A stretch of DNA of 64,000 nucleotides from assembly GCF_016026235.1 (NCBI RefSeq), contig NZ_CP065613.1; one strand, given 5' to 3'. Positions within the stretch are counted from its first letter, which is position 1, and each line of letters begins with the position of its first letter. A program made the position numbers and the translations under genes. The notes below the pieces were generated by a model. The model made no database searches, was not told where the DNA came from, and saw nothing but the letters and a program-made list of their open reading frames with translations. This document shows, piece after piece, positions 8,656 to 30,666 of this stretch. The DNA comes from Escherichia coli. Its GTDB lineage: Bacteria > Pseudomonadota > Gammaproteobacteria > Enterobacterales > Enterobacteriaceae.

Positions 8656-9180
8656 TCAGTTTTCCTCTTTTTTCATCTCAATCGCACTGGCGCGGATGTG
8701 CACCAGCAGGCGATAGTGGTGGCCGATACTTTCTACCGGCTCAATTTGTTTCCATTCTGTGGCCTGGTCGTCTGAAAAATAGGCAATGACACCGATATAA
8801 CTGGTTTTCTCATCCAGCTTGATCGGCGGCCGTGTTTTTACGGTGTCCGGCAACAGGTTGAAGTCCTGATGATCGATATAGTTTTTCCCCAGCACGTCGG
8901 GCAGCGCGGTGGTGGCAACCTGGTCGTAGTCGGCGGCCTGGAATTTGGAGTCGTCGCTCAGGTAAACCAGTTGGACATCCACCGGCGCAGCTTCGCCGTC
9001 CGCCGTCAGGTTGCTGTCCGGCTCGGTCAGCAGCGTGACGGTTAGCTCGGTTGACTGATCCATCAGCTTTCCGACCTGAATATCCGGATTGCGGATCACC
9101 TGGCTGATTTTTTTCGCTGTTTCACAGCCAGTTAATACGACGCTCATCAGAACGCAGGCCAGAAACGCTTTGCCGTTCAT
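8656..9180 (-). CDS. tssJ: TssJ outer-membrane lipoprotein
   Basis: 174 aa, lipobox LTGC after signal peptide; upstream of tssK. Confidence 0.7.
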   Translation of the reverse strand: MNGKAFLACVLMSVVLTGCETAKKISQVIRNPDIQVGKLMDQSTELTVTLLTEPDSNLTADGEAAPVDVQLVYLSDDSKFQAADYDQVATTALPDVLGKNYIDHQDFNLLPDTVKTRPPIKLDEKTSYIGVIAYFSDDQATEWKQIEPVESIGHHYRLLVHIRASAIEMKKEEN

Positions 9181-10473: not shown

Positions 10474-11523
10474 TTATTCCCTGATTCGGATGGTGATGGC
10501 GGGCGGTACTTTCGGCTGACCAATAAAGCTGGTTCTACCGAGGCGGGAGCTGGCCGGATCGCCAAGGCGCATCCCTTTAGCCTGCTGTGGTGCCAGGCAC
10601 AGCCGTAAATCCCAAGCAAACTGGTCGCGCAGAATAAAGGAAAGGAACATGGTCAGAGGCAGGTGATTTTCGCCATCGGGTAAAAATGAGAGATAACGCT
10701 CCCGCGACAGGTTGCCAATCTGCAACAGAAATTTTCCGCTGCGATCCGGCACCCGTGCGCCGAGGGTAAAATTAACGCCAAGTATGGAGCGTCCCGGAAT
10801 ATGTCCAGCCGTTTTTCCTTTCGGATTACGTACACCAAGCCGGTTCTGGTGTGCCGGATCAATGGCGACTTTACGCAGTTGCCAGCGTTCAATGGTGACA
10901 TCCGGCAAATCAAAACAGTGCGACACCAGATTACAGATAACCTCCGGCGCGCGGCCTGGTGTTGCCAGAATTCCGGCGTAAGCCAGCATTTTGCTGTGGT
11001 TAATGGCAAGCCTGTCGCGCACGCTCTGATTACCCAGCCCGACCAGCGCGTACATGCGCTGTGAAAAGGTGTCAGTGCCGCCATTACGAAAGCAGATGTA
11101 GTAGCGGTATTTGCGCCAGGCATGATAGGCAAACTGTGTCCAGCGGTGGCTGAACAGATCGAGAAATTCTTTAAGGCCGTCTTCGTTCTGTGCGGACTCC
11201 TGCGCCATCTGATCCAGATAATAGCCCGGTAGCGGCGACTGGCTGCCGGAAAAACCAAGGAACCGGGTTTGCAGTACATACTGTCCGTTCTGGCTACGGG
11301 AAAGCGCACTCAGGTCCGTACCCGGAAAACCGATACTGGCGTCAGAGCTGAAACGCACGATCTCCCGGGCAGGCTCGGTACGCAGGGAAATATCCTGGCC
11401 CGGAGCGCCATACCGACGGTACAGCGCCTCCATCAGCACATAGAAATTGCAGTTGCGCACATCCGCCGATAACGGCGGTTTTACCGCTATATAAGGGCGT
11501 GCTGACCCATTTTCTCCTGCCAT
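10474..11523 (-). CDS. tssG: TssG baseplate protein
   Basis: 349 aa; follows tssF in conserved tssE-tssF-tssG order. Confidence 0.7.
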   Translation of the reverse strand: MAGENGSARPYIAVKPPLSADVRNCNFYVLMEALYRRYGAPGQDISLRTEPAREIVRFSSDASIGFPGTDLSALSRSQNGQYVLQTRFLGFSGSQSPLPGYYLDQMAQESAQNEDGLKEFLDLFSHRWTQFAYHAWRKYRYYICFRNGGTDTFSQRMYALVGLGNQSVRDRLAINHSKMLAYAGILATPGRAPEVICNLVSHCFDLPDVTIERWQLRKVAIDPAHQNRLGVRNPKGKTAGHIPGRSILGVNFTLGARVPDRSGKFLLQIGNLSRERYLSFLPDGENHLPLTMFLSFILRDQFAWDLRLCLAPQQAKGMRLGDPASSRLGRTSFIGQPKVPPAITIRIRE

Positions 11524-13347
11524 TCCCAGGCCTCCTGACTTTCCGTGTTGATAATTTTCAGACAGTGGTACGAATTGATGCTGGCGTAGAGAGCAAAAAA
11601 GTGCGAGAGCACTGTACCAAGAAGATAAATTTCACCTTCGCAGATAAATGGATCGGGACGTATCCACAGCGTGGTCGCCAGCCCGCGAACCGGCACGCCT
11701 TTAAACAACCTGTCAACAGGTTTGGTTTCGAGTTTTTCTATGGCATCCAGTTTCTGGCGCGACAGTCTGGCCCGCTGCGGATGGTGAGCGCCTGGCAGGT
11801 CGAAGGTCCGCAGGATCTGGATCAGTGTCTCCCTGTCCAGCAGGGAGAGGTAGTTCAGGTTCATCGCGGAAATCAGCGACCAGTGCATGTCAGCCGTCCG
11901 TGACTGGCCAGAGCGGCTGCGTTGGGCGTGTGACATTATGAAATGAGGCCACCGCCGGGTTTTTGTTGACGGCCACGCAGATATCGCCGATATGCAGCCG
12001 AGCAGGGATCATACGGTTGGTACAGATTAATGACGTGGTGATCACATCATCATTAAACCGTGAGCTGTCCGGAATGCTGCCGTCCGCATGGACAAAGGCG
12101 ATACTATGTTCAAGCCCGCGGTGAAACAGGGATGTTTTAGTCCGGTGATGCCAGTAGACGACTTCCCGCTGGCGGCTGTACTCCATCTGGTGCTGGAAAC
12201 TTTCAAATTCGGGCCAGACACGCGCCTGGCTGCCAGGGTTGGATTCAGTACCTGAAACTTTGACTTTGCTGGTGACTGTGCTTATCTGAAAAATGTCATA
12301 AGCGTCGGGATGCCGGTGGCTGGCGCGCAGCGGGTATTCCGCTATCCGTCCATCAGGCCTGACGGGTTCCGCATAATGCGTAAACAGGTTAATGGCTGGC
12401 GTACAGTGCAGACGCAGTGAGTCCTGGCGTAGCTTGATGTCGGCAGGTAACGGGCGGTTAAAGTGCAGGCGCAGCGTAAACGCGCTGACCGAGAAATCGT
12501 CCGGTAGTGGCGCAACATCGCGCAGATGGAAAAAAAAGAAGGCTTCGGGATAGCAGAAATACTCCTGGAGTACCCGATAGCCGCTGTGGACATTTTTCGG
12601 CCACGGTAGCAGGGCGTCCTGGTTTTCAAATCCGGCGGCCTCCAGCCACAGATCCGGCAGCGGCAGGCGGTACTCTCCGGCAATCAGTTCCGCATCCATC
12701 AGGCATTCGCAAAACCACAGATAAAGCTGGTGTCGGGTATAATCGTCTTCATTACCCAGCCAGAACGTTATTTTGTTCAGGTCAAGCATGGCGGGGGAGA
12801 CATTGTTATCTGCGGTAAAACTGATATCTATGATGCCTTCTTTCAGGCTGCTGGCGTTGCGGGTGTCGAGAATGCGCAGTGGTTGCAGCCAGATATCGCG
12901 CGCCAGCGTGAAATGACAGGCTACGGAAGAAACGATTTTATCATGATTGTCAGACAGCACCTTCTGAGCAGCCAGGGCGGACTTTTCTGAGCGGCTTCTG
13001 ATCAGTTCATTACGGCAGACTTGAACAGGGACTTTTAACTGATCGGTTTTGGGTTCATAGGCAATAACCGTCATGGCCGGAACTGGGCGTAAATAGTTTG
13101 CCCACAGCATACGGATTAGCCCATGGGTGAATTCGGGGAATTCGTCCTCAAGTTTCTGACGCAGGCTACCGGACATAAAGGCAAAGGCTTCCATCAGGCG
13201 CTCCACGTCCGGATCACCCTCTTTCTCGGCCAGAAAGTGGGCCAGATGTGGTTTTTCCTGCGCCAGCAGTTTGCCAAGCTGGCGAAGATAATCCAGCTCT
13301 TCGCGGTAGTAACGTTCTTCAAAAGCCACAGAGATCACTCCACACAA
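11487..13347 (-). CDS. tssF: TssF baseplate protein, apparently frameshifted (two overlapping ORFs 11890..13347 and 11487..11936)
   Basis: The 485 aa and 149 aa ORFs together give about 620 aa, the normal TssF size; the C-terminal piece carries the conserved TssF C-terminus (NLNYLSLLDRETL...). Frames differ by one nucleotide within 11890-11950. Confidence 0.6.
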
Positions 13348-17215: not shown

Positions 17216-19615
17216 ATGTCCTTAAAAGGTCTGCGCTTTACGCTGGAGGCTGACGGCCAGGAGCCGGACACCTTTGCAGTGGTGAATTTCAGGTTAATCC
17301 AGAACCAGTCTTATCCGTTTGTGATGAGTGTGGATGTTGCCAGCGACTCTTTTATGCAGACGGCGGAGATGCTGCTGGAGAAGAAGGCGACGCTGACCAT
17401 CTGGCAGGGCGTCATCCCGCTGCGTTATGTTACCGGCGTGGTGGCGGGCTTTGGCATGCAGGAGAACAATGGCTGGCAGATGCGTTACCACCTGCGTATT
17501 GAGCCGCCGTTATGGCGGTGCGGGCTGCGGCAGAATTTCCGTATCTTCCAGCAGCAGGATATCCGGACGATATCGGCCACGTTACTGAACGAGAACGGCG
17601 TCACGGAGTGGACGCCGCTGTTTTATGAGGACCATCCGGCGCGGGAGTTCTGTGTGCAGTACGGGGAGTCGGACCTGGCGTTTCTGTCCCGGCTGTGGGC
17701 GGAGGAGGGAATTTTCTTCTTTGAGCGGTTTGCGGCGGACAGTCCGGAGCAGAAGCTGACGCTGTGCGACGATGTGGCGGGGCTGTCACAGGCGGGAGAG
17801 CTTCCGTTTAACCCGGACACATCGGCAGGAGCGGAGACAGAGTGTGTCAGTATGTTCCGTTATGAGGCGTATGTCCGCCCGTCGTCGGTGCAGAGCCAGG
17901 ATTACACGTTTAAGGTGCCGGACTGGCCGGGGATGTATGAGCAGCAGGGTGAGAACCTGAACGGACAGCTGGCGCAGTACGAGATATTTGATTATCCGGG
18001 AAGGTTCAAGGATGAGCAGCACGGCAAGGATTTCACGCTGTACCAGATGGAGAGCCTGCGCAGTGATGCGGAAAAGGCCACAGGGCAGAGTAATTCGCCG
18101 AGGCTGTGGCCGGGAACGCGGTTTACGCTGACGGGGCATCCGCAGAAGATGCTGAACCGTGAATGGCAGGTGGTACAGAGCATTCTGTCAGGAAACCAGC
18201 CGCAGGCGCTGCACGGCAGCCAGGGAAAGGGAACCACACTGGGAAATCAGTTAGAGGTGATACCGGCGGACCGGACGTGGCGTCCACGGCTGCAAAGCAA
18301 ACCGAAGGTGGACGGGCCACAGAGCGCCATTGTCACCGGGCCTGCGGGAGAGGAAATCTTCTGCGATGAACATGGCCGGGTACGGGTGAAGTTCCACTGG
18401 GACCGTTATCACGGGATGACGGAGGCGAGTTCATGCTGGGTGCGGGTATCGCAGGCGTGGGCGGGGCCGGGGTTTGGTAACCTGGCGATACCGCGGGTGG
18501 GCCAGGAGGTGATTGTTGATTTTCTGAACGGAGACCCGGACCAGCCGCTGGTCATGGGCCGGACGCACCATGAGGACAACCGTTCGCCGGGCGACCTGCC
18601 GGGAACGAAGACGCAGATGACCATCCGGTCGAAGACCTATAAAGGAAGCGGATTTAACGAACTGCGCTTCGAGGACGCCACCAGTAATGAGCAGGTGTAT
18701 ATCCATGCGCAGAAGAACATGGATACGGAGGTGCTCAACGACCGGACAACGGATGTGAAACATGACCATACGGAAACCATCGGTAACGACCAGAAGATAA
18801 CGGTGGTGAAGGGTCAGACGGTTCAGGTCGGTACAAAAAAAGAGGGGGGCCACGACCAGAGTATCACGGTGGCGAACGACCGGCGTATCACGGTACGTAA
18901 TGACCAGACTCTGAAGGTGACGAATGACCGGACGGTGAGCGTGAGTCACGATGACGGTCTGTACGTCAGAAACGACCGTAAAGTGACGGTGGAAGGGAAG
19001 CAGGAGCATAAGACGACGGGGAACCATATCAGTCTGGTGGAGGGGAAACACAGCCTGGTGGTGAAGGGGGACCTGGCGGAGAAGGTGAGTGGCGCGCTGG
19101 GGATAAAAGTGGACGGGGATATCGTGCTGGAGAGCAGCAGCCGGATAAGCCTGAAGGTGGGTGGCTCGTTTATCGTCATTCAGCCGGGCGGAGTGGATAT
19201 TGCCGGGCCGAAGATAAACCTGAACGGTGGGGGCAGTGCGGGGACACCGGTGGGGACGATGCAGCCGGCGGTGCTGGAGGCTCCGGAGGATGAGAGCAGT
19301 GATGATGGCAGTGATGACTCCGGAGAGGATAGTGGCAATCCCGCAGGGAGTGACGGAGGAGGTGATGGCGGTGACGATGAAGATGATCCTGAAAAATATA
19401 CCCTCCAGTTCCATTTTACGGACGATGACGGGATACCGTATTCAGAGACGCAGTATATTGCCTTTTTTGAGGATGGCACACAGACGCGTGGTGAAACAGA
19501 CAGAGAGGGATATACAGAAATATTTTATACAGATACAGCACAGGAAATTAAAGTCCAATTGTTATTTTCGGATGCTTTTTATATTGAGCCGGAGGGGCAT
19601 TATGGCAGGGAATAA
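17216..19615 (+). CDS. vgrG: VgrG (TssI) spike protein with acidic C-terminal extension
   Basis: 799 aa; gp27/gp5-like body, repeated RNDxT/V-type beta-helix motifs, C-terminal acidic linker (DDGSDDSGED...GGDDEDD) plus about 70 aa tail. Confidence 0.9.
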   Translation: MSLKGLRFTLEADGQEPDTFAVVNFRLIQNQSYPFVMSVDVASDSFMQTAEMLLEKKATLTIWQGVIPLRYVTGVVAGFGMQENNGWQMRYHLRIEPPLWRCGLRQNFRIFQQQDIRTISATLLNENGVTEWTPLFYEDHPAREFCVQYGESDLAFLSRLWAEEGIFFFERFAADSPEQKLTLCDDVAGLSQAGELPFNPDTSAGAETECVSMFRYEAYVRPSSVQSQDYTFKVPDWPGMYEQQGENLNGQLAQYEIFDYPGRFKDEQHGKDFTLYQMESLRSDAEKATGQSNSPRLWPGTRFTLTGHPQKMLNREWQVVQSILSGNQPQALHGSQGKGTTLGNQLEVIPADRTWRPRLQSKPKVDGPQSAIVTGPAGEEIFCDEHGRVRVKFHWDRYHGMTEASSCWVRVSQAWAGPGFGNLAIPRVGQEVIVDFLNGDPDQPLVMGRTHHEDNRSPGDLPGTKTQMTIRSKTYKGSGFNELRFEDATSNEQVYIHAQKNMDTEVLNDRTTDVKHDHTETIGNDQKITVVKGQTVQVGTKKEGGHDQSITVANDRRITVRNDQTLKVTNDRTVSVSHDDGLYVRNDRKVTVEGKQEHKTTGNHISLVEGKHSLVVKGDLAEKVSGALGIKVDGDIVLESSSRISLKVGGSFIVIQPGGVDIAGPKINLNGGGSAGTPVGTMQPAVLEAPEDESSDDGSDDSGEDSGNPAGSDGGGDGGDDEDDPEKYTLQFHFTDDDGIPYSETQYIAFFEDGTQTRGETDREGYTEIFYTDTAQEIKVQLLFSDAFYIEPEGHYGRE

Positions 19616-20405
19616 TAATACTAGTGGGACTTCACAACCCGAGTCGCAAGTATGTGTAGTACCGCAAAAAATTACAAATAAATTTAAAATAATGATGAGT
19701 AAGGCTTGTAAAGCACAGAAAATGGTTTTATTGAAAAGAGCAGATGATATTATGTCATGGGAGGGGGAACAACAACGAGATTTTATTAAAGTTTTTGGCC
19801 TTAAAGGCGAGGACATTATAAAAATCAGAAAGGTTGGGGAAGATACTGGGAAACGAATGCAAGCGAGACTATTCATAATGGATGGCATCAGACGAATAAT
19901 GACGATTGCAAATGGTTTGACGATCGAAAGCTATAAAGATTATACGAACTGCAATGAATTTGCTGCTTTTATTAGTCCACATCTTGATCCTCCTTACATT
20001 GTAAATATCGGAGCGCATTTTGAATACAGACATGGTATAAAACAGTCGGTTACAGGTAGAGACTCTCATGTAAGTACACTTTGCCATGAAATGTCCCATA
20101 TATTTTGGTATTGGGGTGACAATCAAAAAGGTGGTATGTGGACTCAGGATTATACGGGTATTAATAAGTTCGCAACAAGTAATAAGGATGAAGTTAGCTA
20201 TGAGAAACATGTTTCAGTGGCTAATGATCTGGTTACATTGCGTAAAGATCAGTTATTTGAGAATGCATATAATGTTGAAAGATATTTTTATATAAAATTA
20301 AATGATGAAGATATTGAAGCTCAAGATGAGAATATGTTAGCAAAAAAAGTAGAGGATAAAATAAAAGAGATAGAAAAATGTTTTGATGAGTTGATGGGGA
20401 AATAA
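19602..20405 (+). CDS. Putative VgrG-associated effector, zincin-like metallopeptidase candidate (HExxH)
   Basis: ATG at 19602 overlaps vgrG stop by 14 nt (track ORF 19227..20405 begins inside vgrG). AT-rich; motif STLCHEMSHIFWYWGD...WTQDYTG (HExxH plus a downstream Asp). Confidence 0.45.
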   Translation: MAGNNNTSGTSQPESQVCVVPQKITNKFKIMMSKACKAQKMVLLKRADDIMSWEGEQQRDFIKVFGLKGEDIIKIRKVGEDTGKRMQARLFIMDGIRRIMTIANGLTIESYKDYTNCNEFAAFISPHLDPPYIVNIGAHFEYRHGIKQSVTGRDSHVSTLCHEMSHIFWYWGDNQKGGMWTQDYTGINKFATSNKDEVSYEKHVSVANDLVTLRKDQLFENAYNVERYFYIKLNDEDIEAQDENMLAKKVEDKIKEIEKCFDELMGK

Positions 20406-20468
20406 GATGAAGAGGTTGGCTTTCTATAATCTAAATTATGTTGTACTGATGGTTTTTTTCTTTGTTTT

Positions 20469-21155
20469 TTGCCATTATCTATTGCAATTGCAATAGATAA
20501 TGAGAATCTTTTTGTAAAAAAATACAGATTCGGTTTTGAACGAAGAAGTGACAATGGGAAACCAATTATTTATCTTAGCCATAATTTAGCGCCAGAGGAA
20601 AATATAAGTAATGAATTAACAAATGATGTTGTTGTTAAATTGGTGGTTAAGCCACATGCTGAAAATATTTTAGCTACTATAACTTTTTATAACAGTAGTA
20701 CTAAATCGTATTTTCTCCCCAGAATATATTATCCAAAGAACTTCCAAAAAGGAAATGGAGATGTATTTGATGCTTTGTGTGATGACGAATTCTTGATTAC
20801 ATCAGGAAATATTAGCTTAGACTATCTAGGAGGCTTTTGTCCCTTTGAGCTTGATTTGAATTTGAGCCGATGGGTGGAAATTACGGCAGGTAAAAAAATA
20901 TCTTTTGATGTAAAATTGAATGATATGCATTCATTTCTCCCCAGTTTAAATAATTATCATATAAAAACATTAAACTACAAACTTGTTAGGAGAAAATGGT
21001 TTGTATTAAAATCAATTAATGAAACATTCCTCTCTATTTTGATGAAAAGATACTCATGTAATGAATATGATTTTAGAGCTATATCATTTAGTGGAGAGGG
21101 ATGTGATAATTATGAATTTGATAAAAATACGTTTTTTTTGTTAATCAAATATTAG
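20469..21155 (+). CDS. Hypothetical protein, immunity candidate for the upstream effector
   Basis: AT-rich 228 aa ORF directly downstream; begins with TTG in the track; a 29-codon ATG-initiated hydrophobic peptide (20407..20496) lies in another frame just upstream across a T-run. Confidence 0.3.
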   Translation: MPLSIAIAIDNENLFVKKYRFGFERRSDNGKPIIYLSHNLAPEENISNELTNDVVVKLVVKPHAENILATITFYNSSTKSYFLPRIYYPKNFQKGNGDVFDALCDDEFLITSGNISLDYLGGFCPFELDLNLSRWVEITAGKKISFDVKLNDMHSFLPSLNNYHIKTLNYKLVRRKWFVLKSINETFLSILMKRYSCNEYDFRAISFSGEGCDNYEFDKNTFFLLIKY

Positions 21156-21738: not shown

Positions 21739-22509
21739 ATGACAATGATAACAGTATCGCCACACGCTACCGATCAAGACAAATATATTATCTGGCTGAA
21801 GCAAGCTGAATCATTCTGTTCTGCCGCTGGTTTGGATTACATAGATGTGCTTGTTGACCAGGCTGGAACCGACCAACCTTTGCAAAATGATATGCTTCAT
21901 CTGTGGCCAGCCATTCACTGGTATGCCCTGTTTGAAGGAACGCCTGAAGCTGAGACGATGGAGTATTCCCCTGTAGTGTTACGCCTGTACTTTGCGCTCA
22001 GTAGCCATCGCAAATTTCTGGCACAACTGATGGCGTCATTTGCTGATACGCCGCGTCTTACTTTGTTGATATCCCCTCTTACATTCGACCTGCTGGGGCG
22101 GCATCTTCAGGTATTGTCACAGGTTCAGTGGGAAGAACAGACCGGATTGCTGCGTTACTATGATAATCGGGTGTTCCCTTTACTGTTCACACATGTTTTG
22201 ACTAACGAGCAGCAGGCGACATTTACTGATATTGCGTTGTTCTGGAGCTGGTTAGACCGTGATGGTGAGATTAACTGGAAATCAGGAAGTTTTTCACCAG
22301 AACGCAGGCTTACTGACAACCCGGAGATGAATCGGGTGGATGATGTACAGGTGGGATTGATGGGCTGTATCTGCGACGCTGAAGTCCTGATGAAGGAGAA
22401 AGCAGTCAGTGAACTCAGTCAGGAAAGCTATTTTGCCCACTGTCTTGATATTGCTTTCAGAGCCAATGACGCGAAATATTTCGGAGCTTTGCGGGACTTC
22501 GAAGGATAA
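21739..22509 (+). CDS. DUF4123-like T6SS effector adaptor (Tap/Tec-type)
   Basis: 256 aa immediately after the vgrG fragment (RBS AAGGGAG); size and position typical of DUF4123 adaptors. Confidence 0.6.
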   Translation: MTMITVSPHATDQDKYIIWLKQAESFCSAAGLDYIDVLVDQAGTDQPLQNDMLHLWPAIHWYALFEGTPEAETMEYSPVVLRLYFALSSHRKFLAQLMASFADTPRLTLLISPLTFDLLGRHLQVLSQVQWEEQTGLLRYYDNRVFPLLFTHVLTNEQQATFTDIALFWSWLDRDGEINWKSGSFSPERRLTDNPEMNRVDDVQVGLMGCICDAEVLMKEKAVSELSQESYFAHCLDIAFRANDAKYFGALRDFEG

Positions 22510-22822
22510 TATTGTGGTGATGTACGGGGAGATTTATCTGTTTAAAAGTCCGTAGCTGTTAATATCAAGAGATAATCGTGAAATAAACGGAAAATCAAGC
22601 TCGACATGTAATGGTAGTATCCATCATGTTGCATTTGTGTTCGATCGTAATGTCAGTTCACTTGGCTGCAATATATTTTGCGTAATATCATCAATGCTCT
22701 GTCGATATTCCAATGTGTGACAATCGAAAGATATGCATTTTATTTGCTTCTTTGTCAAAACTTTATTGTCGTAGAAACAATACCCATCAATTAAAATCTC
22801 TCAAAGTAAAAGAACCAGCAAC

Positions 22823-23377
22823 ATGTCCAGCAAAATAAGGAAAAGTATCAGTATGAGAGCGATTTTCAAATGTTATTCTCTAATGATTTTATTTGCAGTA
22901 TCAGGCTGTTCAATGGCAAAAAATAGCGGTGATTACACTGCTGTGGATATTAATGGGATAAATCATACGGATAAGGATATAAATTATATACACATCAATG
23001 GTTACGGCGGACCAAATATTGGCCCATTCGGAGACGGTGGAAGATATTGTTGCGTTATGCTGCCAGATAAGTGGCATTCTGGATTAAAAGCCCGAGTTGA
23101 GTGGGAGGTTGATCCAAATACAGCTCCTCTGCCTCCAGGCTATAAGGACAGGGAGAAATTTGAAGCATGGAAGAAAGTTGCGCTAAACAGTTTTAGAAAA
23201 TATTCAACAATTGTTGATATCCCGGAATATGATGCTGAGCTTTGTGGCCTGACCGTTCATTTTCTAACGTGTAATCAGATAAAAGTGACAACCGTCTGCC
23301 AGAAATATGGTACACCAAATTATCCTATCAAAGAACCCCGCGAGATGAAGGAACCAGCAACATGTCCAGCAAAATAA
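22823..23377 (+). CDS. DUF3304-like lipoprotein, Tli1-type immunity candidate (copy a)
   Basis: 184 aa, signal peptide with lipobox VSGC; paralogous to the next gene; Cys-rich (RYCCVMLPDKWHSGLKARVEWEVDPN). Confidence 0.5.
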   Translation: MSSKIRKSISMRAIFKCYSLMILFAVSGCSMAKNSGDYTAVDINGINHTDKDINYIHINGYGGPNIGPFGDGGRYCCVMLPDKWHSGLKARVEWEVDPNTAPLPPGYKDREKFEAWKKVALNSFRKYSTIVDIPEYDAELCGLTVHFLTCNQIKVTTVCQKYGTPNYPIKEPREMKEPATCPAK

Positions 23378-23904
23378 GAAATGGAATGAATATAACAAAA
23401 GTAGTTAAAGGCTGTCTGGTATTAATTTTGATGGTGATTTCGGGTTGCTCAGCAGCTAATTACGACGATTATACTGCAGGTGATCTCCGGGCAATAAATC
23501 ATATTAAAGGTATCAGTATTAATTGGTTCACCGTAAATGGTTATCGGGTCCATGGTTTGGGCGGTGGATATTGCTGCATAATGTTACCAGAGAAGTGGCA
23601 TTCTGGATTAAAAGCCCGGATCGAGTGGGAAGTAGACCCGAACCCCCTTGAACCTATTGCAATGAAAAAAGAAGGTTTTGGCTATGAAGAAGATGCTTAT
23701 GCTAAACATGCTGCAAATTATCAAAAATATAAAGTAATTGTTGATATCCCGGAATACGGCGCTGAACGTTGTGGCCTGACCGTTCATTTTCTGCCGTGTA
23801 ATCAGATTAAAGTGACAACCGTCTGCGAGGGCTATGGCACACCGAATTATCCTATCAAAGAACCCCGCGAGATGAAGGAACCTGCAACATGTCCAGCAAA
23901 ATAA
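23362..23904 (+). CDS. DUF3304-like lipoprotein, Tli1-type immunity candidate (copy b)
   Basis: 180 aa paralog of 22823..23377; the 3-prime approx 130 bp are about 90 percent identical between the copies. Confidence 0.5.
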   Translation: MSSKIRNGMNITKVVKGCLVLILMVISGCSAANYDDYTAGDLRAINHIKGISINWFTVNGYRVHGLGGGYCCIMLPEKWHSGLKARIEWEVDPNPLEPIAMKKEGFGYEEDAYAKHAANYQKYKVIVDIPEYGAERCGLTVHFLPCNQIKVTTVCEGYGTPNYPIKEPREMKEPATCPAK

Positions 23905-25982
23905 GTGGTCTGGCTTTTCCGTGTTATGCCCCCCCGGTGTTCCCTGAAGATGGGCGATTAATATTATCTGAAGTGCAGGTAAACGCGAACTACCTAAAAC
24001 AAATCAATAAAACAGAGGAGCACAAAACCAACTGTAGTAAACAGGCTGGATTTAGAATTGGCTTTACGTGTAATCAAAGTCTGCATATTAGTCTGTTTTT
24101 TGATGGTACAAATAATAATGAATATAATGACACAAAAGTCTCTCATCCAACCAATATTGCGAAATTATTCCACACAAGTATCGAAGACCGTAATGCTGGG
24201 TATTTTTCCTATTACATACCTGGTGTAGGCACACCATTTCCCAAGATAGGTGAAATGGATTACAGCAACAGCGGACTGGAATTTGCCACCGGTGGTGAAG
24301 ACAGGATTAATTGGGCATTATTACGCCTCGTGGATGCTCTTAGCTATGCTATTGACCCTACCCAAAATGGGCTGAATGAGAAGGTGGCAAAAGAGCACAT
24401 TCCTGTCATGCGAGCTCACTGGCCGATGACTGGTGAAGTGAATCGTCGCAATGTGATTAACCCCTACCTGGAAAAATTACAGGGGCAGTTAGAACAAGCC
24501 AGTCCGCGCCTGCTAAACGTAAAGCTATTTATCTACGGATTTTCCCGTGGCGCAGCGGAAGCGCGAACCTTTGTTAACTGGTTGACTCAGTTAGCTTGCC
24601 CGCAGAGGCAACAGGTGATGCTGGCCGGTTTAGCTGTCAGTATTGAGTTTTTGGGGCTGCTGGATACCGTAGCTTCTGTGGGGGCGGCGCATGTTTTGCC
24701 GGGCGCTGCCGGTCATATGGGATGGGCCGATAGTACTCAGCAACTCCCTGATGAGCGGCACTTTCCCGGCCTGATTAAATGCTGTCGTCACTTCGTTGCC
24801 GCGCATGAGCAGCGGCTGTGCTTCCCGCTGGATTCAATCCGTCGTCCTGAAGGCAATTATCCTTTATATGCAGAGGAAGTGATCTATCCGGGGATGCACT
24901 CTGATGTCGGTGGTGGCTATCCCGTTTGCGATCAGGGGAAGTCCTGTGGAGGTCCAGATGAAATTCTCTCTCAAATTGCTCTGCATGATATGTATCTTGC
25001 GGCGTTTGATGAGGGCTCTCCATTATCAGTGCATCCTTTATTCATAACCAAAATGATAAAAGATATTTCACCATCAAGAGCTATGTCTGATTCATCAATT
25101 GCTGAATTTGTCATCGCTCCAATGTTGATTAAACGCTTCAACATCTGGCGTCAAGCGCTGCTGAACACCACCTTGCAGGGTACAGAAGAAATGATTGATA
25201 CGAGGGAAGGTTATCACTCCTATCAACTTGCCCAGGTTCTTGAAAGCGCAATTAGCGATCAGATCGGCTGGATCACCGCCTGGCGTATCGGTCGCTATGC
25301 GAATAACAGCCTTCTTGTGCAACCTTTTTATATTAAGGCGCCACAGCTGGATAAAGATGGACTTGATAAAGAGGCTAAAGCGCGTAAAGAACAAATGGAA
25401 AATATTGAAAAAGAACAGGCGAACAAGCAGAAAGGGAATGGCACACTTGATGAAAGTAATCAGGGCATTCCTATCCTTGACCCAACCAATGCTCAGTATC
25501 AGTTGCGAGAGGCAGCCCGAGAATTTCAGAGCGATTATAAAGGATGGACGCGCGATATTAACGGCAGCGTCATGGAGAAAGCCATTCAGATTCTTGTGGA
25601 TGTCATTCCTAAATATCCGGTGTATCTGATTAATGGCGATGATGAAGCAAAAGAATATCAGCAAATTAAGGCTATGGGAGACGGACTCTATCCACAATTT
25701 TTTATTGATTCACTGGGAACGGGAACGCGTACTCAGCCATGCGCTGAATTACTGGCTCTCTATGATGACCAGGTTCACGACTCCCGCGCCTGGTTTATGC
25801 AAAGTTCGCTGGGTGGACGCGAACCCTGGGGCGGTTATTTTCGCTACCGCATGATTTACTTCGGTGATGAGGCTAATAAAGAGCTGAAGCTAATCTCTGC
25901 AGATGGCAAAGTTGTTGGCGATCAGCCCACATCCAACCGGGTCATTTATTGGATGGAATCGAAAACGGTGAGCCGAGGTTAA
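23889..25982 (+). CDS. Tle1-like phospholipase effector (DUF2235 alpha/beta hydrolase)
   Basis: 697 aa; DUF2235 hallmark HISLFFDGTNNN and nucleophile elbow GFSRG; follows adaptor and lipoprotein genes. Confidence 0.7.
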   Translation: MSSKISGLAFPCYAPPVFPEDGRLILSEVQVNANYLKQINKTEEHKTNCSKQAGFRIGFTCNQSLHISLFFDGTNNNEYNDTKVSHPTNIAKLFHTSIEDRNAGYFSYYIPGVGTPFPKIGEMDYSNSGLEFATGGEDRINWALLRLVDALSYAIDPTQNGLNEKVAKEHIPVMRAHWPMTGEVNRRNVINPYLEKLQGQLEQASPRLLNVKLFIYGFSRGAAEARTFVNWLTQLACPQRQQVMLAGLAVSIEFLGLLDTVASVGAAHVLPGAAGHMGWADSTQQLPDERHFPGLIKCCRHFVAAHEQRLCFPLDSIRRPEGNYPLYAEEVIYPGMHSDVGGGYPVCDQGKSCGGPDEILSQIALHDMYLAAFDEGSPLSVHPLFITKMIKDISPSRAMSDSSIAEFVIAPMLIKRFNIWRQALLNTTLQGTEEMIDTREGYHSYQLAQVLESAISDQIGWITAWRIGRYANNSLLVQPFYIKAPQLDKDGLDKEAKARKEQMENIEKEQANKQKGNGTLDESNQGIPILDPTNAQYQLREAAREFQSDYKGWTRDINGSVMEKAIQILVDVIPKYPVYLINGDDEAKEYQQIKAMGDGLYPQFFIDSLGTGTRTQPCAELLALYDDQVHDSRAWFMQSSLGGREPWGGYFRYRMIYFGDEANKELKLISADGKVVGDQPTSNRVIYWMESKTVSRG

Positions 25983-26100: not shown

Positions 26101-26238
26101 AAAATCACGTAATGCTGCTTTTTTTGTACTAAATAATTCGCATTTTATGTTCAATAATTGAGGTGTTCCTTATTACCTAAAGCTGTTTTTCATTGCTTAT
26201 ACATGATCAAATACTCATTGCATAATTAAGGGGGCAAA

Positions 26239-27055
26239 ATGGAACTTAAAAAATTGATGGAACATATTTCTATTATCCCCGATTACAGGCAAGCCTGGAA
26301 AGTGGAACATAAATTGCAGATATTCTATCTGTTAACTATTTGCGCCGTTATTTCTGGTGCATAATGCTGGGAAGATATAGAGGATTTGGGGAAACACAAC
26401 CCGATTTTTTGAAGTGATATGGTGATTTTGAAAATGGTATTCCTGTTCACGATATCATTGCCAGAGTTGTATCCTGTATCAGTCCTGAAAAATTTCATGA
26501 GTGCTTTATTAACTGGATGCGTGACTGTCATTCTTCAGATGATAAAGACGTCATTACAATTGATGGAAAAACGCTCCGGCACTCTTATGATAAAAGTCGT
26601 CACAAGGGAGCAATTTATGTCATTAAAATCCGTCTTCATATTGTTTGCATGTCTCTGATGAATTTATTGATTTTACGTTTGAATGGAAAGGGCTGAAGAA
26701 ATTATGCATGGCAGTCTCATTTCGCTCAATAATAGCAGAACAAAAGAAAAATCCCGAAATGACGGTCAGATATTATAGCATTTCTGCTGATTTAACCGCA
26801 GAGAAGTTCGCCACAGCGAACCGAAATCACTGGCAAGTGGAGAATAAATTGCACTGGCATCTGGACGTGGTAATGAATAAAGACGACTTTATAATAAGAA
26901 GATGAAATGCAACAGAATTATTTTCAGGGATACGGAACATCGCTATTAATATTTCAAAGAAAGATAAGATACTCAAGGCCGGGGCAAGATGTAAGATGTG
27001 AAAGCAGCTGCGGACAGAGACTACCTCGCGTCAGTCCTTTCGGGGGCGGGCTTTC
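26239..27055 (+). pseudogene. H-repeat associated protein (ISAs1-family transposase) pseudogene with internal deletion and frameshifts
   Basis: Starts [26 protein letters not shown]..., then stop/frame changes; contains [28 protein letters not shown] and C-terminal [23 protein letters not shown]...[20 protein letters not shown]; about 320 bp of the middle are missing relative to the full-length family. Confidence 0.7.
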
Positions 27056-27228
27056 GTAATCTTGCTCTGCAAGGGATGATAAAAAGTGCAACTTTATTCC
27101 ACGCAGCTATTTAGACAGCGTACAGTAAACAAACGAAAGTTGTTATTTCAATGGTCAGGGCAAGAGCATGAAGTGTTTACTACACACTATGCTCTTGTAC
27201 TGGAGTCAGGTCTTGTTTGGAGGGATAA

Positions 27229-27732
27229 ATGGTAGATATTGTCGAGGCCGATAAAACGGATATTTATTTCATTCAGGAGAGTGTTTATGGCAAAATCGGG
27301 TTGCCAGCTTTTGGTAATACAATAGGACCATCCGCACAGCAAGTTGTTAAAAAGGTATTCGCTGTCGTTAAAGAACGAGATAAGACACATGCAAAACAGA
27401 GATTATTGTTGGAATATAATGGTAACAAACTCTGGATGAATGCTATTGATGGCAGTGAAGCTATCCTACCAACAGAATTTTCTAAGCGATACGAACTTTC
27501 ATTATTCAATACTACTAATTTTGGAGAAGATCCTTTTCCTGATGTTAATTTATATAATAATATGAAATCAAGTTTTTTTGTAAGGTTTGGTGGAACATCC
27601 CATCCCGAGGCTTGGGCTATTTATAATGCAAGTACGAAAGAGGTTAAATATATAGAAACTGCAAGAGAAATTGATAAAATATTCAGTGATTTTAACTTGA
27701 GTGGTACATTGCCAATTCACATTGGTCAATGA
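27229..27732 (+). CDS. Hypothetical protein (AT-rich orphan ORF)
   Basis: 167 aa ORF in a very AT-rich segment between H-repeat fragments; no recognisable motif. Confidence 0.3.
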   Translation: MVDIVEADKTDIYFIQESVYGKIGLPAFGNTIGPSAQQVVKKVFAVVKERDKTHAKQRLLLEYNGNKLWMNAIDGSEAILPTEFSKRYELSLFNTTNFGEDPFPDVNLYNNMKSSFFVRFGGTSHPEAWAIYNASTKEVKYIETAREIDKIFSDFNLSGTLPIHIGQ

Positions 27733-28005
27733 TTTTTCAAATTGTGTGATTAAATAATTGAACATTAATGATGATTTATAGCATCATTATTCTATAACAT
27801 GAATAAACGGATTGAATGTGTTATGTTAAAAATGAGTTTATACGTAATAATATTGTTATTTCCCTTTCAGATTAGTGCAGCCATTACTAGCAAGGAAAGT
27901 GAGGTTGTTTCACCATTATTAATGGATGTTAATTCTTCACTAACAATGGAAAATATTTCTGAATTATCCACATCATCGGAACCATCGCAACAGGGGGTAT
28001 TTCCC

Positions 28006-29297
28006 TGAGGGATCCCCAGAAAATTTAGTAAACCATTATCATATTGGTATACCGTTGCTGTAGAACTTTCAGCCCTGCGTCAAGTGACAGTGTGTTTAGT
28101 ATGAGTGGAGAATGTCGAATCACATTCTCCGCCAGTTTTAATAACGAGATGACTCGCCTGTGCTTCACTGTATTTGCCTGATATTTATGATGTATCCCTT
28201 TGTTTTCCAGGCTGAAACCGCTTAACCACATAATGATACTGGCTAATGTTGCGATCAGACTCAATACCGTGACCCGCCCGGATGAATGACTGGCACCAAA
28301 CCGTAGTCCAAATCCCCAGCGAGGATTTTTTTCATCCCTGAAATTTTGCTCAATTTGCATTCTACGGCTGTATAATTTCATTACCTGTTTTGGCGAGAAC
28401 TCAGTACTGTTTGTGAAAATAAACCATGGTGATTTCCCGGCAGTACGAGCTTTAGCCGTCACCGATGGTCTGGTTGCTCTTTCCTTCGAGCGTTTAAATC
28501 TACGACCTTTAGGCTTACTTTTATAAAGATAAAAATGCCCTTCATGTTGTGCATTTTTATCTCGACCCAGCAGGCCTTCACCTAAATAAATTGCTGTCGT
28601 TGATGCTTTTGTGCCTGAGTCCGACACCTTTTCCCAGCCATTACCAACATTGTAATAATGATTGCCCAGTACCCGGCAAATATAGGTCCAGCCACGGGAG
28701 CGGAGCTGTTGGAACCATCGCCCCTGAAAACCGGCATCTGTAATAACAATGACATCAGTCCCGGGGGAAAAGCACTCAGCAAGCGATTCCAGAAAACGCT
28801 CATGTACATCTGCATTCGCTGTCTGTGATGATGGAACGACACAACTCATCAACGGTAAAGAACGCCCGTCACATGCCAGGCTTGCCCGCAAAAGCTGAAA
28901 ACGAGAGGCATGATAAGCACTCCAGTCAATGAGTATCACAACACGAGACATTCCCCGCGTAATCTTTTGGGTAATTCGCTGAAAAATGGTGGAAACCTCA
29001 TTTTGCAAATGTCGATTCCCCAACAGTCGATCCACCCGCTTTATTTTGTTTTTAACTGATGCCGTACCGGTTAAATGACGCCCGATACTGGTAAGTGTGA
29101 GGGAAGCGCCATTTATTACAGCATTAGTTGCGTCAATCAGTGATTTTTGACGGTAAAGATGCAAAGGGGCCAGTATATTGTTAAGGAAATTTTGGCATAA
29201 TGAACGTGCAGGCATAGTGGTGATCTCCTTGAAATTGTTAGCACAATCAATTAGATCACATCTCACTATGCCTGTCTTGTTTTCTGGGGATTCCTCA
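28006..29297 (-). mobile_element. IS4-family-like insertion sequence, copy 1 (intact), approx 1292 bp
   Basis: Terminal inverted repeats TGAGGGATCCCCAGAAAA / TGAGGAATCCCCAGAAAA; 11-bp direct repeat GGGGTATTTCC at 27994-28004 and 29298-29308; single transposase ORF. Confidence 0.8.
28025..29215 (-). CDS. IS transposase (intact)
   Basis: Track ORF 28025..29266; start placed at ATG 29215 (MPARSLCQNFLNN...) with RBS AAGGAG, matching the start in copy 2. Confidence 0.8.
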   Translation of the reverse strand: MPARSLCQNFLNNILAPLHLYRQKSLIDATNAVINGASLTLTSIGRHLTGTASVKNKIKRVDRLLGNRHLQNEVSTIFQRITQKITRGMSRVVILIDWSAYHASRFQLLRASLACDGRSLPLMSCVVPSSQTANADVHERFLESLAECFSPGTDVIVITDAGFQGRWFQQLRSRGWTYICRVLGNHYYNVGNGWEKVSDSGTKASTTAIYLGEGLLGRDKNAQHEGHFYLYKSKPKGRRFKRSKERATRPSVTAKARTAGKSPWFIFTNSTEFSPKQVMKLYSRRMQIEQNFRDEKNPRWGFGLRFGASHSSGRVTVLSLIATLASIIMWLSGFSLENKGIHHKYQANTVKHRRVISLLKLAENVIRHSPLILNTLSLDAGLKVLQQRYTNMIMVY

Positions 29298-29635
29298 GGG
29301 GTATTTCCTGTAATATGTACTCGACTTCATCCTGGCTCTGTAATGAAACGCCAGTTATTAACCGGCTGGGGGCCTGTTTTTATAATTGGGGATGATCCTT
29401 TTTCTCTGCGCTGGATGAGTGAACATCTGGAGATCCTTAAATCGCTAAATGCCCTTGGTTTGGTTGTTAATGTTGAATCAGTAGAACGAATGGAGGTATT
29501 ACAGCAGCGGGCTGATGGGTTATTGTTATTGCCAGTTATCTGCGATAATTTCGTGCAAACTCTGCAATTAAATGCTTATCCGGTATTAATCACAGAGATG
29601 GAAATATCACAATGATTAATAACATAATTACTGCA

Positions 29636-29835
29636 AATAATATCGTAATTTTGAAAATGGTAATCCTGTTCACGACACCATAATTAGAGTTATGTCTTGT
29701 ATCCGTTCAGTATAATTTCACGAATGCTTTATTAACTGGATGCGTGACTGCCATTCATCAAATGATAAAGACGTCATCGCAATTGATGGAAAAGCGCTTC
29801 CACACTCCTATGATAAAAGTGGTCGCAGGAGAGCG
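29636..29835 (+). pseudogene. H-repeat associated protein fragment (second, diverged copy of the 5-prime region)
   Basis: Encodes ...[35 protein letters not shown]...; about 85 percent DNA identity to 26420-26590, same orientation. Confidence 0.55.
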
Positions 29836-29886: not shown

Positions 29887-30666
29887 TCACCACAACCTAA
29901 ACTCATCCGCATCCTGCCATGCCGGAAACTTTTCTCTATATTCCCGCAATGCCATCATCGACAGCTCCGCATCAATGCGCGTTGCCTGATGCGCGTCGGC
30001 AGTAGCGATAATCTCGCCTTGTGGATTAATCACCCGGCTGTCACCGCGATAATGGCAGCCGTTGCCATCGCTGCCGACGCGATTGCATCCCGCCACATAC
30101 GCCTGATTCTCAATCGCGCGGGCCGTCAGCAATGCCTGCCAGTGCAGAGAGCGCGGAGCAGGCCAGTTGGCAACGTAGATGGCGAGGTCATAATCGTTGA
30201 GATTGCGCGACCACACCGGAAAACGTAAGTCGTAGCACACCAACGGCAAAATACGCCAGCCGCGCCATTCCACAATCACTCGCGCATTGCCCGCTTTATA
30301 ATGTAGATGCTCATCTGCCATGCGGAACAGATGACGCTTATCATAAAAATGTACCGTGCCGCCCGGCTCAACCAGCAAAAAGCGGTTAACCGAACCAGAC
30401 TCCGTTTGTAATGCAACACTGCCTGCAATCAGCGCATTGCACTGCTGCGCCTTAGCTGTCATCCAGTTCACTACGTCATCTTGTGCTAGCGACGAAGCTG
30501 CCGCTTCCATGGCAAAGCCGCTGGTAAACATCTCCGGTAGAACGATCACATCGCGCCCGGTAATACCTTCCAGTTGACGATCAAAATGACGCAGGTTGGC
30601 AGGGCCATCCATCCACACCAGTGGTTGCTGCAAAAGCGTAATCTTCAAACCAGGCACGGTGTACAA
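29887..30666 (-). CDS. yafV: YafV-like carbon-nitrogen hydrolase (omega-amidase)
   Basis: 259 aa nitrilase-superfamily protein; true start may be a GTG three codons downstream ([11 protein letters not shown]...). Confidence 0.85.

Follow-up and report, generated by a model that had tools for sequence, protein, structure and literature searches.

Two short, AT-rich genes lie at the border of a type VI secretion system (T6SS) island of Escherichia coli, and the question they raise is whether they are chance open reading frames (ORFs), debris of mobile DNA or a functional pair. We analysed them in a stretch of 64,000 nucleotides of the E. coli chromosome (contig NZ_CP065613.1; hereafter the window), which holds the aspV-yafV island and has a mean GC content of 52.1%. 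The first gene, ORF-A, is intact, and the second, ORF-B, is split by an insertion sequence (IS). Tentatively, and with slightly more doubt than confidence, we read ORF-A as a new stand-alone T6SS cargo effector and ORF-B as a protective envelope partner recruited from an integrative and conjugative element (ICE), a reading drawn from genomic context only.

ORF-A and ORF-B are genuine genes under purifying selection

The unit consists of the following features.

27120..27228, plus strand: leader of the ORF-A/ORF-B unit, between an upstream ISAs1 element and the ORF-A start
27229..27732, plus strand: ORF-A, intact, 167 amino acids (aa), 19 kDa
27823..28004, plus strand: 5′ part of ORF-B, predicted Sec signal peptide and low-complexity linker; alternative upstream ATG at 27799
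27994..28004: left copy of the 11-bp target-site duplication, GGGGTATTTCC, present as a single copy in empty sites elsewhere
28005..29297, minus strand: ISEc60 (IS4 family), 1293 bp, splitting ORF-B
28025-29266, minus strand: transposase ORF of ISEc60, matching DDE_Tnp_1 and NF033591
29298..29308: right copy of the 11-bp target-site duplication, GGGGTATTTCC, in direct repeat
29309..29615, plus strand: 3′ part of ORF-B, conserved DUF2859 domain with a predicted thioredoxin-like fold lacking CXXC

A first-pass annotation of the window had placed a 167-aa frame at 27229..27732, and we confirmed that it is open and preceded by a Shine-Dalgarno sequence (GGAGG, 27219-27223) five bases before the ATG. 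The strong AT-richness reported for both genes also holds, with a GC content of 34.7% in ORF-A and of 33% and 41% in the 5′ and 3′ parts of ORF-B (33-41% overall versus 52.1% for the window). Many E. coli genomes align with the window only from position 27120 on, which places about 109 nt between the ISAs1 end and the pair. A promoter and terminator scan of the locus returned promoter counts close to the shuffle expectation. For ORF-B, the same annotation had joined 27799..28005 to 29298..29615; the split by an IS and the reading frame are correct, but the join keeps the target repeat twice and so adds an extra GVFP. Before the insertion the gene comprised 27799-28004 plus 29309-29615 (513 nt, 170 aa). 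The true start is probably the ATG at 27823, giving 162 aa, since this is the start annotated by RefSeq in E. coli 042 and the second allele described below has in-frame stops upstream of it.

Both genes are widespread. In a survey of 5426 complete E. coli genomes, ORF-A was present at ≥99% identity in 547 and the 3′ part of ORF-B in 757, and the uninterrupted pair was found in approximately 540. Carriers of ORF-A include S88, UTI89, 536, NRG 857C and 042. Both E. coli 042 and FDAARGOS_943, the nearest relative of the window strain, have an intact pair, annotated as ‘hypothetical protein’ and ‘integrating conjugative element protein’.

A second allele (allele 2; OU349849, PS10-3) occupies the same chromosomal position with both frames open and with amino acid identities of 68% for ORF-A and 76% for ORF-B. 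Between the two alleles the ratio of non-synonymous to synonymous substitution rates (dN/dS) is 0.30 for ORF-A and 0.35 for ORF-B, and the excess of synonymous over non-synonymous changes is significant for each gene (Fisher p = 9e-8 and 3e-5, respectively). Since yafV is 97.7% identical at the nucleotide level between the alleles while ORF-A and ORF-B are only 80-81% identical, the pair behaves as a polymorphic, exchanged cassette and not as a locus that diverged in place. In two allele-2 loci (L024, 10880-13570; L003, 6931-9576) a conserved trio of genes lies immediately 5′ of ORF-A, encoding a WD40/BNR-like protein, a protein of 411 aa that matches no Pfam family and a cytoplasmic thioredoxin (137 aa, motif WCNNC). 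At a further locus (L009, 16-1025) the trio has an internal deletion; behind it come a degenerate ORF-A and a third allele of ORF-B, 45% identical.

Beyond E. coli, the pair of E. whittamii is 96% (ORF-A) and 90% (ORF-B) identical, with open frames; a scan of GTDB species representatives returned this species only, as the search patterns had been derived from close alleles. A metagenomic enterobacterium (locus L004) encodes a more divergent pair (59% and 48% identity for ORF-A and ORF-B, frames open, 27-nt gap), and since its yafV is only 77.5% identical to that of E. coli at the nucleotide level, it belongs to another genus. Adjacency, gene order and a spacing of 27-90 nt persist in four divergent lineages, two of them beyond E. 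coli, and the divergences of the two genes rank congruently across lineages. ORF-A and ORF-B are therefore genuine genes under purifying selection. The proposal of the first-pass annotation that they are cargo is supported, in that both are genuine, horizontally acquired genes; the 547 and 757 carrier genomes and the synonymous excess show that they are not chance ORFs.

ORF-A founds an undescribed protein family that is linked to T6SS genes

ORF-A has no match in NCBIfam, PHROGs or PADLOC, and neither it nor 20 of its relatives matches any Pfam family, including Rhs, PAAR and other carrier domains. A word-indexed protein search returned Escherichia sequences only. An exhaustive HMMER search of 1.84 billion representative proteins returned 31 relatives of 36-217 aa, the full-length ones being about 150-217 aa and the shortest being fragments. 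Profiles of the ORF-A and ORF-B families gave nothing meaningful against PDB sequences, and literature searches that covered both proteins, DUF805 together with T6SS immunity, and the aspV/yafV site returned nothing on these genes. ORF-A thus founds an undescribed protein family.

The family alignment is characterised by E17 in the N-terminal strand and by the motifs GLPxLGNTxGPS and GxDPxPxxxLYxN...GG...PxA; among the polar residues, E17, D101 and Y109 alone are near-invariant. ORF-A contains no hydrophobic segment, and therefore neither a signal peptide nor a transmembrane (TM) segment, and its relatives likewise lack both. Its structure is predicted with confidence (pLDDT 84.7, pTM 0.79) as a sheet of three long strands with smaller elements and a C-terminal helix, that is, a β-sheet platform.

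Genomic context ties the ORF-A family to T6SS genes in independent lineages. The window itself carries a complete-looking T6SS-1 cluster (tssA, vasI, clpV, tssL, tssK, tssJ, the gene of an FHA protein, tssG, tssF, tssE, tssC, tssB and hcp). Across the surveyed genomes tssF of T6SS-1 is found in 549 and the union with ORF-A amounts to 560, so that about 536 genomes share both, an almost complete overlap. Allele 2 is preceded by other T6SS cargo (VgrG, DUF6484, DUF2169, a PAAR-like protein and an HNH toxin), and the L004 pair by vgrG, DUF4123, two more genes and PAAR. A relative with 40% identity to ORF-A (P0089) starts 16 nt past an orphan hcp, in an intergenic island between wecH and yiaA of an enterobacterium, and a Paraburkholderia relative (P0120), together with a 164-aa partner, lies between tssL/tssM/tssL and tssF/tssG of a T6SS core cluster.

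The relatives of ORF-A are each accompanied by a small envelope protein encoded next to them. At several loci (L011, L012, L015, L016 and L021) a co-directional gene for a 149-165-aa protein with four TM segments stands beside the ORF-A relative, with or without a DUF805 gene, and at two others (L010 and L023) the partner is a convergent multi-TM protein. Such two- or three-gene modules (an ORF-A-like gene, the 4-TM protein gene and often DUF805) occur at unrelated chromosomal sites. None of the ORF-A-relative contexts that we examined is an ICE. The suggestion of the first-pass annotation that the genes form a toxin/immunity module is the best available reading, given that the ORF-A family occurs repeatedly with T6SS genes and with small envelope-located partners.

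Several of these loci show further features. One module has an orphan Tai4 immunity gene 2 kb upstream. At L021 (6777-7825) the 4-TM partner is encoded upstream of the ORF-A-like gene with a 4-bp overlap; the contig is plasmid-like (Rep3, ParA, resolvase), so the module can be plasmid-borne and remote from any T6SS. In Salmonella Senftenberg NCTC10384 (L023; NZ_LN868946.1, ‘plasmid 4’, 6700-7630) a frameshifted ORF-A-family pseudogene and a convergent multi-TM ORF lie between rpoC and sseK1, in the same layout as the hcp-linked L010 copy; the presence of rpoBC and the thi operon shows this record to be a piece of chromosome labelled as a plasmid. L004 has a short ORF (8738-8953) between PAAR and the ORF-A homologue, judged from its sequence alone to be a VgrG N-terminal fragment, and a 179-aa ORF without a Pfam match (10910-11449) after the DUF2859 gene.

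ORF-B is a DUF2859 protein outside its ancestral ICE setting

Profile scores make ORF-B a clear member of the DUF2859/TIGR03765 family: it matches TIGR03765 (PFL_4695 family integrating conjugative element protein) over the whole model (positions 1-105; 120.6 bits, 2e-35, cutoff 59.75) and PF11072 (DUF2859) with 99.5 bits (2e-28, cutoff 25). The earlier statement that neither gene has a recognisable motif, which stands for ORF-A, thus fails for ORF-B. Residues 1-23 are hydrophobic and end in ...FQISA/A, which we read, by hydropathy and inspection, as a Sec signal. The C-terminal α/β domain is thioredoxin-like, with GDDPFS at the active-site position instead of CXXC.

Outside Escherichia, the nearest relatives of ORF-B carry the annotation of ICE proteins; they come from Salmonella, Citrobacter, Erwinia and Buttiauxella, with 43-60% identity over the part aligned. 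In two Salmonella ICE loci (L006 and L007) the DUF2859 gene lies within a canonical conjugation cluster of mating-pair formation class G (MPF-G), in the order SLT-type transglycosylase, DUF2859 gene, traD, RAQPRD-family gene, DUF3262, DUF2976 and further genes to traC. ORF-A has no similarity to the SLT transglycosylase encoded 5′ of DUF2859 in these elements. Around ORF-B there are no type IV secretion system (T4SS) or ICE genes within at least 10 kb in the window, E. coli 042, FDAARGOS_943, PS10-3 or L004, and no conjugation genes surround the E. whittamii copy. The ORF-A-paired clade has two extra cysteines (residues 64 and 139) without counterpart in ICE-type members, and the N-terminal motif of the latter (ALTVVADLGGES..PLF) has degenerated in it. 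ORF-B is therefore outside its ancestral ICE setting, and the label ‘integrating conjugative element protein’ does not signify an ICE at this locus.

The best-described relative is Orf71178 of ICEclc, an envelope-located protein with a Sec signal peptide and a predicted structure resembling thiol-disulfide oxidoreductases; it is encoded between iceD4 (traD) and the VirB1-like iceB1, and its deletion lowers ICEclc transfer approximately 10-fold (PMC10018362). ORF-B is predicted to be built like this protein, with a disordered linker joining the Sec signal to a C-terminal thioredoxin-like domain that lacks CXXC. It differs in having neither traD, nor a virB1-like transglycosylase gene, nor any other MPF-G gene nearby, in being paired with ORF-A beside T6SS cargo, in the degenerated N-terminal motif and in the two gained cysteines. 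TraF and TrbB of F-type conjugation, named as analogues in PMC10018362, are likewise periplasmic thioredoxin-fold proteins, some of which lack CXXC. These two proteins are attached to a secretion apparatus while ORF-B has no T4SS here, and the likeness is one of analogy, with no sequence relationship, although no test of homology was made.

A candidate T6SS effector and its putative envelope partner

The absence of a signal peptide from ORF-A, its repeated adjacency to T6SS genes, the envelope-located partner, the modularity and the allelic polymorphism together make it a candidate T6SS effector. We suggest that ORF-A and ORF-B together would constitute a cargo module, placed at that end of the aspV T6SS island which is distal and faces yafV. 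ORF-A would be made in the cytoplasm and, lacking a Sec signal and having a size of 19 kDa that fits the Hcp lumen, would probably be Hcp-borne; once delivered, it may act on the envelope of neighbouring cells. ORF-B, derived from a DUF2859 accessory protein of ICEclc-type (MPF-G) conjugation systems, would be exported by Sec to the periplasm and there shield the producer as a putative immunity partner, standing in for the 4-TM inner-membrane partners of distant ORF-A relatives. In the window strain the module would be out of service, with ORF-B split by ISEc60 and tssF frameshifted.

11487..13347, minus strand: tssF of T6SS-1, frameshifted by one extra A at 11892

Compared to the intact tssF of strain 98232, the window copy has this one additional A, which yields two overlapping frames; the listed tssF matches of other genomes, too, are shorter than the window copy by one base. 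The extra A reflects either a sequencing error or an inactivating frameshift specific to this strain.

Stand-alone T6SS cargo effector-immunity pairs delivered by Hcp or VgrG include Tse1/Tsi1, Tae4/Tai4 and Tle1/Tli1. Like them, the module consists of a small signal-less protein gene followed by a gene for a predicted envelope protein, is found at the end of a T6SS cluster or behind hcp, shows allelic diversity and is AT-rich. Unlike them, ORF-A has no sequence or fold similarity to a described effector or immunity family and no motif of the Cys-His or Ser-Asp-His type, and its partner family varies by clade. What is new here is thus a candidate T6SS effector family, ORF-A; the family of ORF-B is already known and is found in a non-canonical context.

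Several observations weigh against an effector-immunity pair. No toxin domain or catalytic motif was found in ORF-A, the family has no invariant Cys, His or Ser, and a structural search with the ORF-A model returned no convincing or informative neighbour and no enzyme relative. The Escherichia subfamily lacks an internal stretch of about 30 residues that the ~190-aa relatives possess, so that Escherichia ORF-A could be a de-toxified form. The co-occurrence with T6SS-1 is partly plain physical linkage in one island, and several family members lie far from any T6SS gene. A further ~200 E. coli genomes have lost both ORF-A and the T6SS, with a frameshifted ORF-B left beside yafV in the one locus examined; the module is dispensable and decays after island loss. 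The partner differs between ORF-A subfamilies, so the role of ORF-B is deduced from position only, and it is the weakest link of the proposal. Finally, an intact ORF-A beside a broken ORF-B would be tolerable only if delivery or expression were off. The tssF frameshift points this way: were the T6SS dead, the putative toxin gene could stay intact next to a broken putative immunity gene. Since, in addition, the IS junction is unique to this strain, we set the broken gene aside as a strong objection.

Three other explanations have to be weighed against this proposal. It is rather unlikely, in our judgement, that ORF-A is T6SS-linked effector or cargo while ORF-B, instead of being its immunity protein, is a domesticated or hitchhiking periplasmic thioredoxin-like folding helper of a former ICE at aspV, co-inherited through adjacency alone. 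ORF-B does score as a bona fide TIGR03765/DUF2859 protein; Orf71178 is an accessory envelope protein whose loss costs about 10-fold in transfer and which has no known immunity role (PMC10018362); distant ORF-A relatives have quite different, 4-TM partners; and in allele 2 a separate CxxC thioredoxin gene lies just 5′ of ORF-A. A hitchhiker is, however, hard to reconcile with the adjacency, order and 27-90-nt spacing kept in four divergent lineages, with purifying selection on ORF-B where there is no T4SS to serve, and with the lack of any alternative immunity gene candidate beside ORF-A in the Escherichia/L004 clade.

We consider it improbable that ORF-A is an accessory or regulatory T6SS component (an adaptor, chaperone or assembly factor) and no toxin, with ORF-B and the membrane partners of the relatives acting as envelope anchors or co-factors. 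The Paraburkholderia pair between the core genes tssL/tssM and tssF/tssG would fit such a role, as would the lack of a toxin motif and a β-sheet platform fold without enzyme relatives. Yet the ORF-A gene is missing from most T6SS clusters, is polymorphic at one locus and travels in a self-contained two- to three-gene module found at unrelated chromosomal sites and on the Rep3 plasmid-like contig; patchy presence, modularity and polymorphism argue for cargo rather than machinery. Quite improbable, too, is a decaying remnant of an ICE or other mobile DNA without current function, in which ORF-A would be an ICE cargo gene and the T6SS neighbourhood a coincidence of the shared aspV hotspot. The ICE family of ORF-B, the AT-rich DNA, the IS debris on both sides, the loss of ORF-A and frameshift of ORF-B associated with the ~200 genomes and the IS in ORF-B here would all be expected of a remnant. 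Against it, no annotated locus that we examined holds another ICE gene, true ICEs have an SLT transglycosylase unrelated to ORF-A 5′ of DUF2859, ORF-A relatives stand beside hcp or inside a T6SS core cluster in unrelated bacteria, and a dN/dS of about 0.3 with intact frames across genera argues against neutral decay.

Returning to the effector-immunity proposal, its most specific form, that a T4SS periplasmic thioredoxin-like accessory protein was captured and repurposed as the immunity protein for a T6SS effector family of novel fold, is speculative and we would not expect it to hold. If it did, DUF2859 proteins would work by binding and restraining an envelope-active protein, which in ICEs could be the VirB1-like lytic transglycosylase always encoded alongside DUF2859, and the envelope-targeting toxins represented by ORF-A would be a new T6SS class, with dedicated 4-TM proteins neutralising its other members.

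Were ORF-A an effector, extra-intestinal and enteroaggregative E. coli would have in their T6SS-1 arsenal a further, uncharacterised toxin family whose predicted fold is new. An immunity role of ORF-B would mean that a component moved between secretion contexts, from T4SS helper to T6SS immunity, and DUF2859, known so far by a mild conjugation phenotype, would gain a first clue to its function beyond that. The test system is cheap and direct, as both genes are small and nature supplies allele pairs as well as knock-outs. The ORF-A family also flags orphan modules of two or three genes, now only ‘hypothetical’, in Burkholderiales, Salmonella and soil metagenomes, and should neither role prove true the assignments are still useful for annotation.

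ORF-B was interrupted very recently by ISEc60

The element that splits ORF-B is ISEc60: full-length matches of 99.9% identity elsewhere carry this annotation. Its inverted ends of 21 nt lie at 28003-28023 and 29280-29300, and it cuts ORF-B between the signal-peptide/linker region and the folded domain. The ISEc60/ORF-B junction was found in none of the 5426 genomes, and the ORF-B site is intact in FDAARGOS_943, which has about 38 copies of ISEc60. The insertion is therefore very recent. Complete ISEc60 is rare (14 of the 5426 genomes), and the ~38 copies of FDAARGOS_943 (NZ_CP065615.1) are accompanied by further interruptions of its T6SS island by IS21 (in tssC) and IS1; copy number and island disruptions together indicate a lineage in IS expansion.

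Surrounding island features and ISAs1 debris

To the right, the gene order is Tle1, ISAs1 pseudogene, ORF-A, ORF-B (with ISEc60), ISAs1 fragment, yafV, ivy, fadE and gmhA. The surrounding features are as follows.

17216-19615: vgrG, upstream of ORF-A and ORF-B
21739-25982: genes for a DUF4123 adaptor, two DUF3304 (Tli1-type) proteins and the Tle1 phospholipase
~26238..27119, plus strand: ISAs1 (H-repeat) transposase pseudogene, upstream of the pair; context only, with no functional tie to it
29641..29835, plus strand: internal ISAs1 fragment, 195 bp, between the pair and yafV
29887..30657, minus strand: yafV, first core gene and right border of the aspV-yafV island

The first-pass annotation had based its toxin/immunity suggestion on the H-repeat neighbour and had proposed to look elsewhere for fusions of the genes to Rhs or other toxin N-terminal regions. 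Neither link is supported. The L004 pair has no ISAs1, and in allele 2 ISAs1 lies on the other side, downstream of the pair, so that the H-repeat adjacency is best seen as incidental IS traffic at the island border. Fusion to a longer Rhs, VgrG, PAAR or Hcp protein occurs in none of the 31 ORF-A relatives, and no carrier domain was detected with Pfam. The pair resembles Rhs/H-repeat orphan toxin-immunity modules in its ISAs1 neighbour and its position at the tail of a toxin-rich island; unlike them, ORF-A has its own start codon and Shine-Dalgarno sequence, no homology to an Rhs core or PAAR and no carrier fusion. We therefore rejected the Rhs/H-repeat orphan-toxin reading, there being neither carrier homology or fusion nor a conserved ISAs1 adjacency. 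A passenger gene of ISAs1 was likewise rejected: the pair is outside the upstream element, its unit starting at ~27120, L004 lacks ISAs1, and the allele-2 element is downstream. The second, internal ISAs1 fragment (29641-29835) was absent from the first-pass annotation; it is 83% identical to the upstream copy and comes from a different ISAs1-family member.

Two further patterns were seen upstream. At 22713-23904 an identical ...KEPATCPAK* tail ends three successive ORFs and overlaps the MSSKI... start of the next gene, the junctions involving a 41-aa ORF, the two DUF3304 Tli1-type genes and the start of tle1. This looks like a tandem immunity-gene duplication with a conserved junction; in FDAARGOS_943 an IS1 interrupts one copy of this Tli1-type repeat array. 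Just 3′ of vgrG, a strongly AT-rich region (19227-21155, GC 28-38%) contains two ORFs, one of 392 aa, initiated at a GTG and overlapping the 3′ end of vgrG, and one of 228 aa; neither has a Pfam match, and they may be another cargo or immunity pair.

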